IMG/VR virus record: IMGVR_UViG_2531839448_000003
Strand: one strand, 5' to 3'
From: a virus
Lineage: Duplodnaviria; Heunggongvirae; Uroviricota; Caudoviricetes
Length of the DNA: 26,625 nt
The notes under the pieces are model-generated. The model saw nothing but the letters and a program-made list of their open reading frames with translations. It had not been told where the DNA came from and ran no database searches. The position numbers and the translations under genes were made by a program. Within the stretch, counting starts at the first letter, position 1. Each line of letters begins with the position of its first letter. This document shows, one piece after another, positions 1-22,092 of the stretch.

Positions 1-1143
1 CTATGCTGTTTTGATATCTACGATAATCCAGTCTTTACCACGATCATCATTGTATCGGTCGGTCATTTTTCTGGATTTATGGCCTAACAATTTTTGCGTA
101 TCCAGACCCTGTTCCCGATATAACCGTTCTGACAGAGATCGCTGCTCATGAAATGTGGGCGCAGTTCCTTGCTCCCATTTTATGCCACATTTTTCCCGGG
201 CCTTTTTAAAAGCCGTTGTCAGAGTATTTGCAGAAACCTGGTCTCCTCTGTTTGCTTGAGAGGTAGTGTGACGGTAATGGACCAGATATTTACTAACAAC
301 AGCATCCCTGCACTGAGATATAACTTCACGAAGGGTAATATTCAGAGCATCGCATTTCAGGTTAAGCGGAATAGCAAGTTTTGAACCGGTTTTTTCCTGA
401 GTAATGTGCAACATGTCGTCCCATATATCAGAGAATTTCAAATTGCAGATATCGCCTAAACGTTGTCCAGTAACAAGAGCAAGTAGCATGCCGCATTTTA
501 AATAGGGCTGCCGTCTGCTTACGCTTTCAAATATTGCCTGCCATTCGGGCAGTGACAATCTTTGGCGGTTTACTCGATTTCGCGGTTGTTTTGTTGCCTG
601 CGCTGGGTTAAATCCTGGCGGAACATGTCCTGCGTGTTGTGCTTCTTTGAAGACGTCGATCAACACCATTCTCACGACTTGCGCCATCCTGTTATGACCT
701 TCAGCCTTTACAGCATCAATTATTTCGGCAATATCAAGTGCGGTAATATCCTTGAGGTGTTGCATTCCACAATGCTCACGGAAAAGACGAATGGGTTTGC
801 CTTTTTGCCGATAGGAGTTGGGTCTTAGTTCATTATGTTGCAGCCTGTCCTCCTGGATAGAAATATATTTATCAAGCCATTCTGTCACCGTAATGTCTGA
901 GCGCCTGCCTTTCATTCTTTCCAGACGCTCATTGACGCTTAATATTTGTCGGGTACGTTGTTCAGCAATAATGGTATTTGCTTCAGTAGCAACTTGTTTT
1001 GCTTCATTCTCATCAGTTCCTAAGCTATGAAAACGACCGGATAGTGGATGTTTGTATTGCCAATATACCTTTCCGGTTCGCTTATCTAATTTGCAATATA
1101 AATTGGGTATAGAGATTTTGTGAGATCGGGGTCTAGCAGCCAT
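1..1143 (-). CDS. int: Phage tyrosine integrase
   Basis: 380-aa ORF, ATG at 1141-1143 (rc), stop at 1-3; lambda-family integrase-like sequence; overlaps the excisionase ORF by 11 nt as in int/xis pairs; attachment site would lie left of the window. Confidence 0.9.
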   Translation of the reverse strand: MAARPRSHKISIPNLYCKLDKRTGKVYWQYKHPLSGRFHSLGTDENEAKQVATEANTIIAEQRTRQILSVNERLERMKGRRSDITVTEWLDKYISIQEDRLQHNELRPNSYRQKGKPIRLFREHCGMQHLKDITALDIAEIIDAVKAEGHNRMAQVVRMVLIDVFKEAQHAGHVPPGFNPAQATKQPRNRVNRQRLSLPEWQAIFESVSRRQPYLKCGMLLALVTGQRLGDICNLKFSDIWDDMLHITQEKTGSKLAIPLNLKCDALNITLREVISQCRDAVVSKYLVHYRHTTSQANRGDQVSANTLTTAFKKAREKCGIKWEQGTAPTFHEQRSLSERLYREQGLDTQKLLGHKSRKMTDRYNDDRGKDWIIVDIKTA

Positions 1144-13949: not shown

Positions 13950-15032
13950 TTAGAACTGGTAAACCATACCTACAGCAACGATATCATCGGTAGCAACGCC
14001 AGATGCTTTCGTGAAATCGCTCTTATCAATCAGGTTGATTTTGTAATCAACAAAAGTGGACATATTTTTGTTGAAGTAATAGGTTGCACCTACATCAATA
14101 TATTCAACCAGGTCCTGATCACCCCACGCACCCAAGTCTTTTCCTTTAGATTGCAGGTAAGCAACGGACGGACGCAGACCGAAGTCGAACTGATATTGTG
14201 CAACTACTTCGAAGTTTTGTGCTTTGTTGGCAATATGGTTATTACCAAAAACAGTCATGTTCTGGGTTTCAGAATAGGTGGTAGCCAGATAGATGTTGTT
14301 CGCATCATATTTCAGACCAGCTGCCCATACTTCAGCATTTTGACCAGATGCATTCAGGCTGTTGTTACCGTAGATAACCTGATTATTAGTGCGGTCAGAT
14401 TTAGCATAGGTTGCACCTACACCGAATCCTTCATACTCATAAGTAGTGGAGAAACCGAAACCATCACCATTAGCTTCAGTTACGTCAGTGCGGTCATTTT
14501 TACCCTGATACTGAGCAGCAAAGTTCAGACCATCAACCAGACCAAAGAAGTCGTTGTTACGATAAGTTGCAACACCAGTGGTGCGACCAGTCATGAACAC
14601 ATCTGTTTGGGTCCAGGTATCGCCACCGAATTCTGGCAGAACGTCAGTCCACGCACCGATGTCATATGCTACACCGTAGTTACGGCCGTAATCGATTGAG
14701 CCGTAGTCCCCGAATTTCAGGCCTGCAAATGCAAGACGGGTTTTGTCTTTGGAGGAGCCTTGAGATTCAGCGCGGTTGCCTTTGAATTCATATTCCCACT
14801 GACCGAAACCAGTCAGTTGATCGTTGATTTGGGTTTCACCTTTGAAGCCAAGACGGGCATAAGTAGTATCACCATCATCTGCATCATTAGAGGAGAAGTA
14901 GTGCTTGGCATTAACTTTCCCATATAGATCCAGCTTGTTACTGTCTTTATTATAAATTTCAGCTGCCTGAGCAGACATCGCCATCAGTACTGATGCAGCT
15001 ACAGCAGAAATTGCCACTGTTAATTTTTTCAT
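13950..15032 (-). CDS. nmpC: OmpC/NmpC-family outer-membrane porin
   Basis: 360 aa with signal peptide ([23 protein letters not shown]|AEIYNKD), porin-like sequence ending in ...VGMVYQF; intact. Confidence 0.92.
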
Positions 15033-15460
15033 CGTGAGCCCTTTTTTTTGAACTATTATTAAAAAATGATGTCACTGCGCGATAAATATTCATCTAATCA
15101 ATGTGATTATTTCAAGATGTAAGTTTTGGTTTCTCGTTTGATTTGTGAAGTAGATCTCTATTTTTATCTGAACTTTTTTCTATCGAATCCTATTCATGGC
15201 TCTTGGCTGAATAAAAATAAATCTATTAGCCAATTTATATTAACGGCTGTTATTTATAAGTGCTCTGTAATTTGAAGGTTCAATTTAAATCGGCTAAAAA
15301 TAACGCTGGAAATTATTTGCTGGTTATTTGTTGAGATTTGCTTATGTATTTGTAGTGGTGTTTTCAATACTCGGTAGCATTCTCGCAAATATCATTTTGT
15401 GGTTTACGTACGTAAAAAATTGGTTATGCTGTTAAGAGTGGTTACTTCGTCACACAGCTT

Positions 15461-15496
15461 AAACCCGCCGTCGAGCGGGTTTTTCCATTTTTTGAG
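15461..15496 (+). terminator. Intrinsic terminator upstream of the lysis cassette (tR'-like)
   Basis: AAACCCGC-cgtcga-GCGGGTTT hairpin followed by TTCCATTTTTT, about 110 nt before the holin start. Confidence 0.6.
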
Positions 15497-15605
15497 TCTC
15501 GATATTAGCTGATAACCCAATACCTGAGTTATTCACTGACTCCGAGTCTGTTACGTTTCGTAGTATTCCCTCAATTTACACCCGCTTTGTCTGCGAGGTG
15601 GGGTT

Positions 15606-15821
15606 ATGAAATCCATGGATAAGTTAACAACGGGTGTCGCCTATGGCACCTCAGCAGGTAGTGCCGGTTACTGGTTTTTACAGCTGCTCGATAAAGTCAC
15701 GCCCTCACAGTGGGCAGCAATAGGTGTGCTGGGTAGCCTGGTATTTGGCCTGCTGACGTACCTGACAAACCTTTATTTCAAGATTAAAGAAGATAAGCGC
15801 AAGGCTGCGAGAGGTGAATAA
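15606..15821 (+). CDS. essD: Holin, phage-21 S-type pinholin with dual start
   Basis: 71 aa with the M1-K-S-M4 dual-start motif ([24 protein letters not shown]...), resembling S21 as recalled; one TM-like segment and a charged C-terminus; TAATG overlap with the endolysin. Confidence 0.9.
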
Positions 15822-16251
15822 TGCCTCCATCATTACGAAAAGCCGTTGCTGCTGCTATTGGTGGCGGAGCAATTGCTATAGCATCAGTGTTAATCACTGG
15901 CCCAAGTGGTAACGATGGTCTGGAAGGTGTCAGCTACATACCATACAAAGATATTGTTGGTGTATGGACTGTATGTCACGGGCATACAGGAAAAGACATC
16001 ATGCTCGGTAAAACGTATACCAAAGCAGAATGCAAAGCACTCTTGAATAAAGACCTTGCCACTGTCGCCAGACAAATTAACCCGTACATCGAAGTCGATA
16101 TACCGGAAACAACGCGCGGCGCTCTTTACTCATTCGTTTACAACGTGGGTGCTGGCAATTTAGACTGGCCCCCTGAATCTCCAGACAACCAATATCACTT
16201 ATTTAAGTGATAGTCTTAATACTAGTTTTTAGACTAGTCATTGGAGAGCAG

Positions 16252-16617
16252 ATGATTGATGTCTTAGGACCGGAGAAACGCAGACGGCGTACTACACAGG
16301 AAAAGATCGCTATTGTTCAGCAGAGTTTTGAACCGGGAATGACAGTCTCCCTTGTTGCCCGGCAACACGGTGTGGCAGCCAGCCAGTTATTTCTCTGGCG
16401 CAAGCAATACCAGGAGGGAAGTCTTACTGCTGTGGCCGCAGGAGAACAGGTCGTTCCTGCCTCTGAACTTGCTGCCGCCATGAAGCAGATTAAAGAACTC
16501 CAGCGCCAGCTCGGCAAAAAAACGATGGAAAATGAACTCCTTAAAGAAGCCGTTGAATATGGGCGTGCAAAAAAGTGGATAGCGCACGCGCCCTTATTGC
16601 CCGGGGATGGGGAGTAA
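16252..16617 (+). CDS. insC: IS2 OrfA (InsC)
   Basis: ATG at 16252 ([24 protein letters not shown]...); the track ORF begins further upstream. Confidence 0.9.
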
Positions 16618-17480
16618 GCTTAGTCAGCCGTTGTCTCCGGGTGTCGCGTGCGCAGTTGCACGTCATTCTCAGACGAACCGATGACTGGAAAGATGGTCGC
16701 CGCAGCCGTCACTCAGATGATACGGATGTGCTTCTCCGTATACACCATGTTATCGGAGAGCTGCCCACATATGGTTATCGTCGGGTATGGGCGCTGCTTC
16801 GCAGACAGGCCGAACTTGATGGTATGCCTGCGATCAATGCCAAACGTATTTACCGGATCATGCGCCAGAATGCGCTGTTGCTTGAGCGAAAACCCGCTGT
16901 ACCGCCATCGAAACGGGCACATACCGGCAGAGTGGCTGTGAAAGAAAGTAATCAGCGATGGTGCTCTGACGGGTTCGAGTTCCGCTGTGATAACGGAGAA
17001 AAACTGCGAGTCACGTTCGCGCTGGACTGCTGTGACCGTGAGGCACTGCACTGGGCGGTCACTACGGGCGGCTTCAACAGTGAAACAGTACAGGACGTCA
17101 TGCTGGGAGCGGTGGAACGCCGTTTCGGCAACGAGCTTCCGGCGTCTCCAGTAGAGTGGCTGACGGATAATGGTTCATGCTACCGGGCTAATGAAACACG
17201 GCAGTTTGCCCGGATGTTGGGGCTTGAACCGAAGAACACGGCGGTGCGGAGTCCGGAGAGTAACGGCATAGCAGAGAGCTTCGTGAAAACGATAAAGCGT
17301 GACTACATCAGTGTCATGCCCAAACCAGACGGGTTAACGGCAGCAAAGAACCTTGCAGAGGCATTCGAGCATTATAACGAATGGCATCCGCATAGTGCAC
17401 TGGGTTATCGCTCGCCACGGGAATATCTACGGCAGCAAGCCAGTAATGGGTTAAGTGATAACAGGTGTCTGGAAATATAG
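16575..17480 (+). CDS. insD: IS2 OrfB transposase (InsD), DDE family
   Basis: 301 aa ([23 protein letters not shown]...), overlapping orfA in a different frame as in IS3-family elements. Confidence 0.9.
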
Positions 17481-17650
17481 GGGCAAATCCACAATTTCAG
17501 AACATCGACGCTTCTTCGCAAAATAAACCAGGGCGATATCAAAGGCGCATGTGATCAGCTACGTCGCTGGACATATGCTGGCGGTAAGCAATGGAAAGGT
17601 CTCATGACTCGTCGTGAGATTGAGCGTGAAATCTGTTTGTGGGGTCAGCA

Positions 17651-18112
17651 ATGAACAGAGTAACCGCGATTATCTCCGCTCTGGTTATCTGCATCATCGT
17701 CTGCCTGTCATGGGCTGTTAATCATTACCGTGATAACGCCATTACCTACAAAGCCCAGCGCGACAAAAATGCCAGAGAACTGAAGCTGGCGAACGCGGCA
17801 ATTACTGACATGCAGATGCGCCAGCGTGATGTTGCTGCACTGGATGAAAAATACACGAAGGAGTTAGCTAATGCGAAAGCTGAAAATGATGCTCTGCGTG
17901 ATGATGTTGCCGCTGGTCGTCGTCGGTTGCACATCAAAGCAGTCTGTCAGTCAGTGCGTGAAGCCACCACCGCCTCCGGCGTGGATAATGCAGCCTCCCC
18001 CCGACTGGCAGACACCGCTGAACAGGATTATTTCACCCTCAGAGAGAGGCTGATCACTATGCAAAAACAACTGGAAGGAACCCAGAAGTATATTAATGAG
18101 CAGTGCAGATAG
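17651..18112 (+). CDS. Rz: Rz i-spanin
   Basis: ATG at 17651 overlapping the endolysin stop; 153 aa with N-terminal TM segment ([23 protein letters not shown]) and coiled-coil-like remainder. Confidence 0.85.
17871..18053 (+). CDS. Rz1: Rz1 o-spanin lipoprotein, embedded in Rz in another frame
   Basis: 60 aa with lipobox (LVVVGC) and Pro-rich body ([16 protein letters not shown]). Confidence 0.8.
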
Positions 18113-18143
18113 AGCTGCCCATATCGATGGGCAACTCATGCAA

Positions 18144-18437
18144 TTATTGTGAGCAATACACACGCGCTTCCAGCGGAGTATAAATGCCTAAAGTAATAAA
18201 ACCGAGCAATCCATTTACGAATGTTTGCTGGGTTTCTGTTTTAACAACATTTTCTGCGCCGCCACAAATTTTGGCTGCATCAACAGTTTTCTCCTGTCCA
18301 ATTCCCGAAACGAAGAAGTGATGGGTGATGGTTTCCTTTGGTGTTACTGCTGTCGGTTTGTTTCCAACAGTAAACGTCTGTTGAGCACATCCTGTAATAA
18401 GCATTGCCAGAGCGGCAGAAAACAACATTTTTTTCAT
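18144..18437 (-). CDS. bor: Bor-family outer-membrane lipoprotein
   Basis: ATG at 18435-18437 gives 97 aa (MKKMLFSAALAMLITGCAQQTFTV...) resembling lambda Bor as recalled; lipobox LITGC. Confidence 0.88.
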   Translation of the reverse strand: MKKMLFSAALAMLITGCAQQTFTVGNKPTAVTPKETITHHFFVSGIGQEKTVDAAKICGGAENVVKTETQQTFVNGLLGFITLGIYTPLEARVYCSQ

Positions 18438-19193: not shown

Positions 19194-19205
19194 GGGCGGC
19201 GACCT
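19194..19205 (+). other. cosN cohesive-end site
   Basis: ...CCGACAGGTTACG|GGGCGGCGACCTCGCGGGTTTTCGCTATTTATGAAAA matches the lambda right-end/left-end junction as recalled. Confidence 0.8.
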
Positions 19206-19368
19206 CGCGGGTTTTCGCTATTTATGAAAAATTTCCGGTTTAAGGCGTTTCCGTTCTTCTTCGTCATAACTTAATGTTTTTATGTAACCGTCTCATTTAA
19301 ACCGTCTTTCGCCTCCCTTTCCTGTTTCCGATACTAATGTCCATTTTCGCAGTAAAGGGACATTTAAG

Positions 19369-20019
19369 ATGAATGCACGAAAAGCGGTACTGGCAGACAA
19401 TCCGGAATTGATCCTGCGTGTGCTACAGCTGAGATTTGACGAGTCACTGTCGTACCCGCGCATTTCTGCGCAGACCGGTGTCAGCAAAACCGCCATTTTT
19501 TCTCTGGTGAGGCGATTTCACCAGGTATTCACTGACTGGCCTCTTTCCGGTGAATATTCCTGCGGGCAACTGGCCCGGGCTCTTTTCCCGGGGCGATACC
19601 CTTCAGCCCCGACCGTGACTCAGCCTGTGAAAGCAGAGAAACCCCGCCGGAACCGATTTTCACCGGAGTTTAAATGGAGACTGGTTCAGCAAACTCTTTT
19701 ACCCGGTGCCTGTGTCGCACAAATAGCTCGAGAGAATGGAATTAACGATAACCTGCTCTTTAACTGGCGGCATCTCTGGCGTAACGGTGGCCTGCAACCG
19801 CCCGGCGAACATGAAACATCGCTACTTCCCGTGACGTTAACTCCGGAGCCGGATAATAAAATCCCGGCACCAGTGCAGATACCTGAACAGATAAATACAC
19901 TGCCAGACAGTCTGTGCTGCGAGCTGGTTCTGCCGGCCGGAACTCTCAGGCTGAAAGGTGAACTGACACCGGCGTTATTACAGACACTTATCCGCGAAAT
20001 GAAAGGGAGCAGCCACTGA
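19369..20019 (+). CDS. IS66-family Orf1 (TnpA-like)
   Basis: 216-aa first ORF of the element; its stop overlaps the orf2 start (ATGA/TGATG). Confidence 0.75.
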   Translation: MNARKAVLADNPELILRVLQLRFDESLSYPRISAQTGVSKTAIFSLVRRFHQVFTDWPLSGEYSCGQLARALFPGRYPSAPTVTQPVKAEKPRRNRFSPEFKWRLVQQTLLPGACVAQIARENGINDNLLFNWRHLWRNGGLQPPGEHETSLLPVTLTPEPDNKIPAPVQIPEQINTLPDSLCCELVLPAGTLRLKGELTPALLQTLIREMKGSSH

Positions 20020-20366
20020 TGATATCTCTCCCTGCCGGTTCGCGTATCTGGCTGGTTGCCGGTATCACCGATATGCGAAATGGCTTTAACGGCCTGGCCT
20101 CAAAAGTTCAGAACGTCCTGAAGGATGACCCGTTCTCCGGGCATCTGTTCATCTTCCGCGGACGCCGGGGTGACCAGATAAAAGTGCTGTGGGCTGACAG
20201 TGACGGACTGTGCCTCTTCACCAAACGCCTGGAGCGGGGCCGCTTCGTCTGGCCGGTCACCCGCGATGGAAAGGTTCACCTTACTCCGGCTCAGTTGTCC
20301 ATGCTTCTCGAAGGCATCGACTGGAAGCACCCGAAACGAACGGAACGCGCTGGCATCCGCATATAA
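20019..20366 (+). CDS. IS66-family Orf2 (TnpB-like)
   Basis: 115 aa (MISLPAGSRIWLVAGITDMRNGFNGLA...), typical IS66 orf2 size. Confidence 0.85.
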   Translation: MISLPAGSRIWLVAGITDMRNGFNGLASKVQNVLKDDPFSGHLFIFRGRRGDQIKVLWADSDGLCLFTKRLERGRFVWPVTRDGKVHLTPAQLSMLLEGIDWKHPKRTERAGIRI

Positions 20367-20385
20367 CCCGTTGTAAAGTGAGGAT

Positions 20386-21955
20386 ATGGACACCTCACTT
20401 GCTCATGAGAATGCCCGCCTGCGGGCACTGTTGCAGACGCAACAGGACACCATCCGCCAGATGGCGAAATACAACCGCCTGCTCTCACAGCGGGTGGCGG
20501 CTTATGCTTCCGAAATCAACCGGCTGAAGGCGCTGGTTGCGAAACTGCAGCGCATGCAGTTCGGTAAAAGCTCAGAAAAACTTCGCGCTAAAACCGAACG
20601 GCAGATACAGGAAGCCCAGGAGCGAATCAGCGCACTTCAGGAAGAAATGGCGGAAACGCTGGATGAGCAATATGACCCGGTACTGCCATCCCCCCTGCGC
20701 CAGTCTTCAGCCCGTAAGCCGTTACCGGCCTCACTTCCCCGTGAAACCCGGGTCATCCGGCCGGAAGAGGAATGCTGCCCGGCCTGTGGTGGTGACCTCA
20801 GTCCTCTGGGGTGTGATGTGTCAGAGCAACTGGAGCTTATCAGCAGCGCTTTTAAGGTTATCGAAACACAACGTCCGAAACTGGCCTGTTGCCGGTGCGA
20901 CCATATCGTGCAGGCACCAGTACCTTCAAAACCCATTGCACGCAGTTATGCCGGAGCGGGGCTTCTGGCTCATATCGTCACCGGGAAGTATGCAGACCAT
21001 CTGCCGTTATACCGCCAGTCAGAAATATACCTTCGTCAGGGCGTGGAACTGAGTCGCGCCACGCTGGGGCGCTGGACCGGTGCCGTTGCTGAACTGCTGG
21101 AGCCGCTGTATGACGTGCTGCGCCAGTATGTGCTGATGCCCGGTAAAGTCCATGCGGATGATATCCCCGTTCCGGTCCAGGAGCCGGGCAGTGGTAAAAC
21201 AAGAACTGCCCGGCTGTGGTCTATGTCCGTGATGACCGTAACGCCGGTTCACAGATGCCCCCGGCGGTCTGGTTCGCGTACAGCCGGACCGGAAAGGTAT
21301 CCATCCACAGAATCACCTGGCCGGTTACAGCGGTGTGCTTCAGGCAGATGCTTACGGTGGTTACCGGGCGTTATACGAATCCGGCAGAATAACGGAAGCC
21401 GCGTGTATGGCCCATGCCCGGAGAAAAATCCACGATGTGCATGCAAGAGTGCCAACCGACATCACCACGGAAGCCCTGCAGCGTATCGGTGAACTGTATG
21501 TCATCGAGGCAGAAGTCCGGGGATGTTCAGCAGAACAGCGTCTGGCAGCAAGAAAAGCCAGAGCGGCTCCACTGATGCAGTCACTGTATGACTGGATACA
21601 GGAACAGATGAAAACACTGTCGCGTCACTCGGATACGGCAAAAGCGTTCGCATACCTGCTGAAACAGTGGGAGGCCCTGAACGTGTACTGCAGTAATGGC
21701 TGGGTGGAAATCGACAACAACATCGCAGAGAACGCCTTACGGGGAGTGGCCGTAGGCCGGAAAAACTGGCTCTTCGCGGGTTCCGACAGCGGTGGCGAAC
21801 ATGCGGCGGTGTTGTACTCGCTGATCGGCACATGCCGTCTGAACAATGTGGAACCAGAAAAATGGCTGCGTTACGTCATTGAGCATATCCAGGATTGGCC
21901 GGCAAACCGGGTACGCGATCTGTTGCCCTGGAAAGTTGATCTGACCTCTCAGTAA
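20386..21955 (+). pseudogene. IS66-family transposase (Orf3/TnpC) interrupted by frameshift(s)
   Basis: N-terminal 20386-~21219 and C-terminal 21335-21955 are in different frames; a sensible reading ([22 protein letters not shown]) runs in the third frame between ~21219 and ~21284, implying single-base losses in homopolymer runs (TGG, CC). Confidence 0.75.
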
Positions 21956-22092
21956 ATATCAATACGGTTCTGGCGAGCCGCTTACGTTTTTATTTAAAAT
22001 ACCCTCTGAAAAGAAAGGAAACGACAGGTGCTGAAAGCGAGCTTTTTGGCCTCTGTCGTTTCCTTTCTCTGTTTTTGTCCGTGGAATGAACA

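Follow-up and report, generated by a model that had tools for sequence, protein, structure and literature searches.

Disruption of prophage genes by insertion sequences is commonplace, and a single case of it carries little weight. In the cryptic prophage DLP12 of E. coli K-12, for instance, one IS knocks out one prophage gene (nmpC::IS5); the IS5 copy sits in the porin and leaves the lysis genes intact. The module order of DLP12 is Q (quuD), an antisense porin, essD, rrrD, rzpD/rzoD and an antisense bor. The catalytic motif of the GH24 endolysins (E-X8-D-X5-T) has been described together with the SAR/pinholin logic of lysis (PMC9239132). In the phage 21 record, an antiholin, a class II holin and an i-spanin are annotated at the endolysin locus.

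Concerning the element itself, Sengstag and Arber are said to have found a hot region for IS2 in phage P1. The A6G frameshift window of IS2 has been described (PMC3299598), and the element moves via a figure-of-eight and a minicircle (PMC3299598, PMC3219604). Curvature-associated targets have been proposed for it (PMC3299598), and a mutation-accumulation study obtained no logo from 58 IS2 duplications (PMC5009759).

Here, we analysed a stretch of 26,625 nucleotides, referred to in its entirety as the window, from a phage-21-like prophage in the E. coli chromosome, integrated beside icd. The modules are arranged in the same order as in DLP12 and, as in that prophage, a single IS has knocked out a gene. 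In the present case it is the endolysin gene that is split, with the porin left intact; unlike DLP12, the prophage sits at icd and still has the full early and head genes. Taken as a whole, it is very probable that a divergent IS2 copy inserted in rrrD of this icd-adjacent prophage, duplicating CAATT, and that lysis was lost. The observation in itself is an ordinary gene knock-out by an IS, and the allele already appears in RefSeq annotations as a split rrrD pseudogene. The part that goes beyond the annotated insertion is the likely hot spot in rrrD.

The split endolysin gene and its junctions

The lysis cassette has the phage 21-type layout, with a pinholin, a SAR endolysin and an Rz with embedded Rz1, all co-directional and in the order seen in K-12 DLP12. 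The coordinates of the features are listed in Table 1. The holin is identical to K-12 EssD (71/71 residues), Rz is identical to K-12 RzpD at 144 of its 153 residues, and Rz1, which is embedded in Rz in a different frame, is identical to K-12 RzoD at 58 of 60.

Table 1. Features of the lysis cassette and of the inserted element (window coordinates)
Feature	Position	Strand	Description
Pinholin/antiholin essD (S21 type)	15606-15821	+	71 aa, dual start MKSM, intact; Pfam PF04971 'Bacteriophage P21 holin S', E=2e-35
SAR endolysin (rrrD/R21 type), 5' part	15821-16160	+	codons 1-113 and first base of codon 114; SAR domain, E35/D44/T50 triad
Present ORF	15821-16210	+	129 aa: 113 endolysin residues and 16 residues from the IS2 left end; TGA stop
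Target-site duplication, left CAATT	16156-16160	.	rrrD nt 336-340
IS2-type insertion sequence	16161-17491	+	1331 bp, IRL first; transposase co-directional with late operon
IRL	16161-16201	+	TAGACTGGCCCCCTGAATCTCCAGACAACC...; first 41 nt as in K-12 IS2, first difference at IS position 42
orfA (InsC/TnpA, HTH)	16252-16617	+	121 aa; Pfam HTH_Tnp_1, E=2.6e-19
A-AAA-AAG (A6G) slippery heptamer	16569-16575	+	predicted -1 frameshift giving a 409-aa OrfAB transposase
orfB (InsD, DDE/rve)	16575-17480	+	301 aa, uninterrupted; Pfam rve, rve_3, HTH_21
IRR	17452-17491	+	ends ...GGGGCAAATCCA; last 26 nt as in K-12 IS2, last difference at IS position 1305
Target-site duplication, right CAATT	17492-17496	.	
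Endolysin, 3' part	17497-17654	+	remainder of codon 114 to codon 165 and stop
Rz (i-spanin, rzpD)	17651-18112	+	153 aa, intact; Pfam PF03245, E=5.8e-54
Rz1 (o-spanin lipoprotein, rzoD)	17871-18053	+	60 aa, intact; Pfam PF06085, E=9.3e-20

The IS3-family element occupies 1331 bp exactly between two copies of CAATT; read directly, its left end is TAGACTGGCCCCC and its right end is GGGGCAAATCCA. The insertion point lies between nt 340 and 341 of rrrD. The 5' part of the endolysin gene is identical to nt 1-340 of intact rrrD genes and the 3' part to nt 341-498, and the endolysin stop overlaps the Rz start in ATGA. When the two parts are joined, without the IS and one CAATT, they form a single ORF of 165 codons that ends in CLWGQQ and a stop codon. 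In each of the 12 genomes listed, an intact gene annotated as 'lysozyme RrrD' matches this 498-nt sequence at 100% identity, which means that a simple insertion has divided a single gene and that the flanks do not resemble it by chance. The same 5 bp would recur at two fixed positions by chance with a probability of ~1/1024; here the repeat coincides with exact IS ends and exact restoration of the ORF.

The sequence-only reading had placed the element and its 5-bp duplication at these positions, had followed the endolysin frame from its start to NVGAGN and into the IS, and had seen it resume directly past the element. On direct reading every coordinate was right (codon N113 lies at 16157-16159), and the alignment to intact genes bore out the continuity of the frame. 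That reading had further described the holin, Rz and Rz1 as intact, and all three are full length by Pfam and by comparison with K-12.

The restored protein of 165 residues is a close relative of the phage 21 R and DLP12 RrrD endolysins, which it resembles in length, in its Gly/Ala-rich SAR segment, in the catalytic triad and in its position after an S21-type pinholin and before Rz/Rz1. It is identical to RrrD (PDB 4zpu) at 163 of 165 residues (E=2.5e-111), and it is 98.8% identical to the phage 21 'SAR endolysin glycosyl hydrolase'. It also matches PDB 3hde (E=9.6e-111); this entry and 3hdf are titled only 'Lysozyme', and we take both to be the phage 21 endolysin. Pfam PF00959 Phage_lysozyme covers residues 34-156 of the restored ORF (E=2.8e-45), the triad reads E35-X8-D44-X5-T50, and the weakly hydrophobic SAR segment (residues 8-26) is identical to that of RrrD (PDB 4zpu). 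The differences from K-12 RrrD are two substitutions (K91E, V159I) and the split after codon 113. The IS is the sole lesion in the endolysin gene.

The same junctions were found at 100% identity in the complete genomes CV839-06 and ETEC1731, in which the prophage adjoins icd and annotated rrrD pseudogene halves flank an IS3-family transposase. At least 24 public contigs encode the truncated 129-aa product, and AFEB01000020.1 matches the window at 100% identity over 12.39 kb. IS2-like copies number a median of 4 and up to 41 per genome and are a classic source of misassembly, by which repeat reads could have been collapsed in the wrong place and the IS assigned to rrrD as an assembly or chimera artefact. 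The probability of this is negligible, as the 5-bp duplication is perfect, the ends are exact and identical junctions are present in two independently sequenced complete genomes (China, Belgium) as well as in several draft assemblies. The allele is a genuine one, inherited in an E. coli lineage that includes porcine ETEC strains. The endolysin insertion is the earliest shared lesion of this lineage, whose members later gained private ones (IS1, IS66, a nested IS, a stop codon and a frameshift).

Relation of the element to IS2

Isoforms of an insertion sequence are, by the ISfinder convention, those that share at least 95% nucleotide and/or at least 98% amino acid identity. Compared with K-12 IS2A (insC1/insD1) over its full length, the element showed 95.57% nucleotide identity, just above the first of these lines, with 59 substitutions (4.4%) distributed across the whole element, mostly synonymous, and no indels. 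OrfA, with 120 of 121 residues identical to K-12 InsC (99.2%, one change), lies above the amino acid line, while OrfB, with 291 of 301 identical to K-12 InsD (96.7%, ten changes), lies below it. The two elements are alike in their 1331 bp, their termini, the orfA/orfB overlap with A6G, the rve/DDE domain and the 5-bp duplication. The length and the termini of the element (IRL TAGACTGG..., IRR ...GCAAATCCA, with imperfect repeats of ~40 bp) are those of IS2; the arms at 16170-16201 and 17452-17483 share a 32-nt core that is 78% complementary. OrfA scored 235.4 bits against the NCBIfam model NF006928 'IS2 repressor TnpA' (cut-off 229), and OrfB scored 706 bits against NF006918 'IS2 transposase TnpB' (cut-off 597). 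RefSeq annotates a 'programmed frameshift' on the same IS copy.

The low OrfB identity and a nucleotide identity of little over the isoform line could mean that the name IS2 is a misnomer and that the element is a separately named IS2-group member of the IS3 family. RefSeq calls the canonical copies 'IS3-like element IS2 family transposase' and this variant only 'IS3 family transposase', and a copy at 99% identity or more is present in only 386 of 7740 matching records. We nevertheless consider a separate name unlikely to be warranted. The element is equal to K-12 IS2 in length and free of indels, its terminal 41 and 26 nt are identical, the A6G site and the 5-bp duplication are the same, and both of the IS2-specific cut-offs are passed. 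Mosaic copies show free recombination with canonical IS2, and the nucleotide identity is above the 95% line, whereas a truly distinct relative, ISEc36, reaches only 81%.

Judged by its sequence, the element is probably a divergent IS2 isoform, and it looks competent for transposition. Its earlier identification as IS2 stands on length, termini, duplication, A6G and the NCBIfam cut-offs, but not in the sense of the canonical K-12 IS2. Other E. coli genomes carry copies with 99.9% identity to the element; unlike the K-12 type, its lineage is a minority one among E. coli IS2. The copy would have entered rrrD by copy-out/paste-in transposition via a minicircle, with OrfAB supplied by the -1 frameshift at A6G.

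Expected consequences for lysis

The ORF that begins at the endolysin ATG now stops inside the IS (16208-16210), and the only readable product is the native part with an IS-encoded tail. This product keeps the SAR domain and E35/D44/T50 and is without the last 52 of the 165 residues (31% of the protein). The split cuts the lysozyme domain at residue 113, and the missing part corresponds to positions ~83-125 of the 125-position Pfam profile; the 52 C-terminal residues are encoded 1.3 kb away, without a start codon of their own. Given the loss of 31% of the protein, the truncated endolysin is presumably inactive, and both the membrane release and the muralytic activity of the split gene's product are expected to be lost. 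If the protein is inactive, the pinholin would still depolarise the membrane and kill the cell on induction, but with the wall left undegraded there would be neither lysis nor phage release. Late transcription from pR' is Q-antiterminated and for this reason would probably read through the IS, and it could still express Rz and Rz1. The left junction also has a promoter-like sequence (TTTACA and TAGACT, 18 nt apart; 16137-16166), but with 3 such sites in the region against 3.3 expected from shuffling, the idea of a hybrid promoter was rejected.

SAR endolysins can be released spontaneously without a holin, which makes residual activity of the truncated form conceivable (PMC9239132). The SAR domain and the triad lie upstream of the break, and E. 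coli genomes with an rrrD-like gene carry one to six copies. The 129-aa protein, or the endolysin of another prophage acting in trans, might thus still degrade the wall and leave the cassette functionally enabled. This is highly improbable in view of the 52 residues and the part of the lysozyme profile that are gone, and no second endolysin was found among the window's ORFs. The stable inheritance of the allele, with further decay of the prophage, is likewise what is expected of a dead lysis gene. Loss of endolysin function would explain the expected inability of this phage-21-like prophage, which is well preserved in other respects, to lyse its host.

The sequence-only reading had also taken the cassette to be specifically disabled at the endolysin. 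This is correct for the lysis cassette and does not extend to the prophage, in which a second element, of the IS66 family, was located at 19284-21985, 1.8 kb downstream, where it splits the interval from cosN to the terminase gene. The IS66 junction was absent from all complete RefSeq E. coli genomes (5426/5426), and the second IS probably impairs packaging in this strain. The two IS lesions would lock the prophage in place with its porin and bor/iss cargo genes still intact.

Probable recurrent IS2-group insertion in rrrD

Junction queries, which covered largely nt 1-340 of the 498-nt rrrD gene, revealed five positions (73, 93, 140, 252 and 340) at which IS2-group elements of different strains, flanked by the same duplication, occur in both orientations. 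The duplications at these positions are GTTAA (69-73), GTAAC (89-93), GTTGG (136-140), CCAGA (248-252) and CAATT (336-340). Five shared both-orientation positions were thus observed against 0.2 expected (P(>=5) ~2e-6). The hot spots are occupied by two IS2 lineages, and one of them (nt 252) also by ISEc36. A 5-bp duplication was present in every IS2-group copy examined in full; a 5'-truncated copy, in MB06173, is without the left one. These results make it likely that rrrD contains at least five hot spots, CAATT among them, at which IS2-group elements insert at the exact nucleotide and independently of orientation.

Recurrence at the same nucleotide could also arise from one old insertion that was spread by prophage recombination, with its IS overwritten by gene conversion. 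Mosaic IS2 copies were identified, of which that in MB56 has a K-12-type left and a window-type right part and that in GPEC1405 is window/K-12/window, so the two lineages do undergo conversion with each other. Near the site, moreover, the window and PK8566 have almost identical rrrD flanks. Conversion cannot, however, invert an element, and both orientations are found at all five positions; PK8566 (+) and 400660 (-) differ at 1 of 1100 flanking nucleotides and have the IS in opposite orientations. One occupant of nt 252, ISEc36, shares only 81% identity with IS2, a divergence at which conversion would not be efficient. The IS of the window and that of PK8566 differ at 58 of the 59 positions diagnostic for window versus K-12 type, up to 42 and 26 nt from the ends. 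Overwriting is accordingly rejected for ISEc36 and wherever the orientations are opposite, and as a general explanation it is quite unlikely, although gene conversion may account for certain pairs with the IS in the same orientation (MB56/DSM103246 and CH4804/2EC1, for example).

The target-site duplications seen were CAATT, CCAGA, CAACG, GTTAA, GTAAC, GTTGG, GGAAA, CCGGA, CTGTC, GCCCA and CATAA, among which no convincing motif could be discerned by eye, in agreement with the mutation-accumulation data (PMC5009759). The IS2 targeting reported earlier, in the phage P1 region and in PMC3299598, is likewise non-random and without obvious consensus; unlike it, the recurrence in rrrD is nucleotide-exact, orientation-independent and common to two IS2 lineages and ISEc36. 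A literature search retrieved no paper that names IS2 together with rrrD, and general searches returned nothing specific. If the hot spots are real, IS2 follows a strong, still undescribed target rule for which the SAR-endolysin gene is a natural reporter, and the recurrent rrrD hits provide a compact natural system for working out IS2 target choice. The findings suggest that endolysin loss through IS2 recurs in prophage domestication; if so, the knock-out would represent a recurrent route to the lock-in of E. coli lambdoid prophages.

IS911 and IS30 are known for IR-targeted insertion. A resemblance of the rrrD hot spots to the IS2 IRs was rejected as an explanation, as the permutation P varied between 0.01 and 0.6 with the choice of site set and of post hoc thresholds, and the geometry was inconsistent between sites; the resemblance remains only a lead. 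Three 8-mers only are common to rrrD and the IS2 IRs, at nt 76-83, 98-105 (reverse strand) and 248-255, and each of them lies at most 6 nt from a hot spot.

The interrupted endolysin gene and the inserted element

Direct reading of 15400-18400, together with a script, showed a 1331-bp insert starting with TAGACTGGCCCCCTGAATCTCCAGACAACC and ending with ...GGAAATATAGGGGCAAATCCA between two copies of CAATT at 16156-16160 and 17492-17496. This agrees with the sequence-only reading, which had placed an IS2 with a 5-bp target duplication in the SAR endolysin gene (rrrD) and had claimed that the flanks form one endolysin ORF; joining 15821-16160 to 17497-17654 gave a single 165-codon ORF. As it stands, the frame from the ATG at 15821 reads ...YNVGAGN (N113 at 16157-16159), followed by 16 IS codons and TGA at 16208-16210. 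The readable product lacks residues 114-165, and no separate start codon is available to the 3' fragment.

A comparison with intact R genes had been proposed as a check. The restored protein was identical to PDB 4zpu ('Lysozyme RrrD') at 163 of 165 residues (E=2.5e-111), matched PDB 3hde, which we take to be phage 21 R (E=9.6e-111), and showed 98.8% identity to the 'SAR endolysin glycosyl hydrolase' of Escherichia phage 21 (OL657228). It has a Gly/Ala-rich N-terminal SAR segment, a Pfam Phage_lysozyme match at residues 34-156 and the triad E35-X8-D44-X5-T50; the SAR endolysin motif E-X8-D-X5-T has been described (PMC9239132). On every sequence criterion, the interrupted gene is thus assigned to the R21/RrrD SAR endolysin family. 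The restored 498-nt DNA was 100% identical to intact 'lysozyme RrrD' genes in 12 of the 12 genomes listed, and therefore the IS is the sole lesion in the gene. A near-full-length homologue was present in 3789 of 5426 complete E. coli genomes.

The element is IS2 in the broad sense, as had been claimed, although 'divergent IS2 isoform' is more exact. The suggested alignment to the IS2 reference ran end-to-end with K-12 IS2A (1331 versus 1331 nt, no gaps) with 59 substitutions (95.57% identity), which were confined to IS positions 42-1305, so that both tips are identical to IS2. The substitutions were mostly silent, leaving 120/121 OrfA and 291/301 OrfB residues identical. The terminal inverted repeat is imperfect (arms 16170-16201 and 17452-17483, 78% complementary), and orfA, orfB and the slippery site specify a 409-aa OrfAB. 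The NCBIfam models 'IS2 transposase TnpB' and 'IS2 repressor TnpA' scored 706 and 235 bits against curated cut-offs of 597 and 229, respectively. Judged by its sequence, the element has every testable structural feature of IS2 and should work like it; the isoform-identity threshold is the sole borderline point. Among complete E. coli genomes, only 386 of 7740 matching records held a copy at least 99% identical to it, most falling in the 95-99% identity band; the variant is a minority IS2 lineage, labelled 'IS3 family transposase' and not 'IS2 family' in RefSeq.

Features of the window and lesions in related prophages
Feature	Window position	Location or sequence	Remarks
S21-type pinholin	15606-15821	upstream of rrrD	71/71 to K-12 EssD; MKSM dual start
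IS2-group site, rrrD 69-73	15889-15893	GTTAA	165 (+), 2018-01-1CC (-)
IS2-group site, rrrD 89-93	15909-15913	GTAAC	E9 (+), 162.2 (-)
IS2-group site, rrrD 136-140	15956-15960	GTTGG	MB06173 (+), F467 (-)
IS2-group site, rrrD 248-252	16068-16072	CCAGA	LD39-1 IS2 (+), EC2001 ISEc36 (+), PK6 IS2 (-)
IS2-group site, rrrD 336-340	16156-16160	CAATT	IS2 in both orientations
orfA	16252-16617	IS2	intact
Slippery site	16569-16575	A-AAA-AAG	intact
orfB	16575-17480	IS2	intact
Rz	17651-18112	downstream of rrrD	153 aa, intact
Rz1	17871-18053	embedded in Rz	60 aa, intact
IS66-family element	19284-21985	between cosN and nohD	2702 bp; private lesion, window
IS1			private lesion, CV839-06 and UGAN01 assembly
Internal stop		tape-measure gene	private lesion, CV839-06
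Methylase frameshift			private lesion, ETEC1731
IS3-family element		nested in IS2	private lesion, AIGA01000034

Insertion hot spots in rrrD

Junction searches, which within their geometry were blind to most insertions in rrrD nt 341-498 (counted from the ATG), identified IS2-group elements inside rrrD or a short way upstream of it in 30 genomes in (+) and 18 in (-) orientation. Twenty-one such loci were fetched, and their ends, duplications and IS type were mapped. The 498 nt of rrrD held 11 distinct (+) and 9 distinct (-) positions, 7 of these 20 being deduced from hit spans alone. Five positions were occupied both ways round in different strains (loci L003, L008-L010 and L022-L028 from other E. 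coli genomes), against 0.2 expected (P ~2e-6), and at each of them both orientations came with an identical 5-bp duplication.

At CAATT, the variant IS2 lies in (+) orientation in the window, CV839-06 and ETEC1731. Canonical IS2 occupies the same site in (+) orientation in PK8566 (99.8% to K-12), in another prophage adjoining trkG, and in (-) orientation in strain 400660; between 400660 and PK8566, the flanks show one difference in 1100 nt. Two IS2 lineages use the five sites, and one site (248-252) also holds ISEc36, an IS2-group relative with just 81% identity to IS2.

In some IS2 copies, K-12-type and window-type segments form a clear mosaic; the two lineages therefore recombine or undergo gene conversion, and consequently some same-orientation coincidences could represent one old insertion altered by conversion. 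Conversion, however, cannot explain opposite orientations at one site, and it is unlikely for ISEc36. We conclude that the five positions are genuine nucleotide-exact, orientation-independent hot spots for IS2-group elements. The mosaics were seen in MB56 (L013 1020-2350), where the left half is K-12-type and the right half window-type, GPEC1405 (L015 1020-2350), CH4804 (L011) and ET490 (L007).

The duplications at the rrrD sites showed no visible consensus, and the resemblance of the hot spots to the IS2 inverted repeats was not significant. A logo was likewise not found among 58 IS2 duplications (PMC5009759), and DNA curvature has been proposed as an IS2 target factor (PMC3299598). Our literature search found no paper naming IS2 together with rrrD, because the event is so ordinary. 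No new kind of system is involved, and the hot-spot pattern is the only part that might merit a transposition specialist's attention.

Lysis and packaging in the late region

Holin, Rz and Rz1 are full length, as had been stated. The late operon is transcribed by Q-modified RNA polymerase, which is terminator-resistant; read-through of the IS to Rz/Rz1 and the head genes is therefore expected. Triggering of the pinholin kills the cell (PMC9239132). From knowledge of phage 21 lysis, S21 would still trigger upon induction and depolarise the membrane, while without a working endolysin the murein would be left whole and the spanins would have no substrate to act on. The predicted outcome is cell death without lysis or phage release.

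The transposase genes of IS2 point the same way as late-operon transcription. The left junction (16137-16166) presents a sigma-70-like pair directed into them, TTTACA in rrrD and TAGACT at bases 1-6 of IS2, with an 18-nt spacer. The count of promoter-like sites in the region was not above the shuffled expectation, and the pair may therefore be due to chance.

The proposal of a specific defect at the endolysin is correct for the lysis cassette and does not extend to the late region as a whole, which also carries the IS66-family element. This element (tnpA, tnpB, and tnpC split in two ORFs) is flanked by the 8-bp duplication GTTTTTAT at 19276-19283 and 21986-21993. It lies 79 nt past the single lambda-type cohesive-end sequence GGGCGGCGACCT (19194-19205) and 107 nt ahead of nohD (start 22093), which encodes the small terminase subunit. 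We take the cosN-to-nohD interval to be the location of cosB in lambda and 21, and packaging is therefore probably impaired. The IS66 junction was found in none of 5426 complete E. coli genomes and was present in the draft assembly AFEB01000020.1.

Distribution, prophage context and decay

Both IS2 junctions have 100% identical counterparts in the complete genomes CV839-06 (from a piglet in China) and ETEC1731 (from a pig in Belgium), where RefSeq places a transposase between two rrrD pseudogene halves; the allele is thus already on public record as an annotated pseudogene. The truncated 129-aa product was found, in exactly this form, in 47 index blocks of a public assembly collection and on at least 24 contigs. 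The window is 99.97% identical to the two genomes save for the extra 2.7 kb at 19284-21985, and AFEB01000020.1 (GCA_000225245.2) is 100% identical to it over 12,390 bp, this extra segment included. Overall, every coordinate of the initial finding was confirmed, and its interpretation is supported with the refinements described.

In CV839-06 and ETEC1731 (L002 and L005), the prophage directly adjoins icd, the attachment locus of phage 21 and e14. The gene order in both is int, xis; exo, bet, gam; repressor and cro-like; the replication genes O, P; ninE, rusA; quuD; an antisense OmpC/NmpC-type porin; the lysis cassette; antisense bor/iss; cos; and lambda-like head and tail genes. The window starts within the integrase (1-1143, (-) strand), and no interruption is apparent in its early region (exo, bet, gam, repressor, O, P, Q).

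The IS2 insertion in rrrD is the lesion common to all these relatives and the others are private, a pattern consistent with lysis having been lost early and the prophage having then decayed piece by piece. In AIGA01000034.1 (L018 6943-8252), the nested element of ~1.3 kb lies in orfB of IS2, at about window 16763. Cargo genes are intact in the window, namely the bor/iss serum-resistance lipoprotein gene (18144-18437, (-) strand) and the porin (13950-15032, (-) strand, 360 aa) between Q and the holin. K-12 DLP12, in contrast, has IS5 in the equivalent porin and intact lysis genes.
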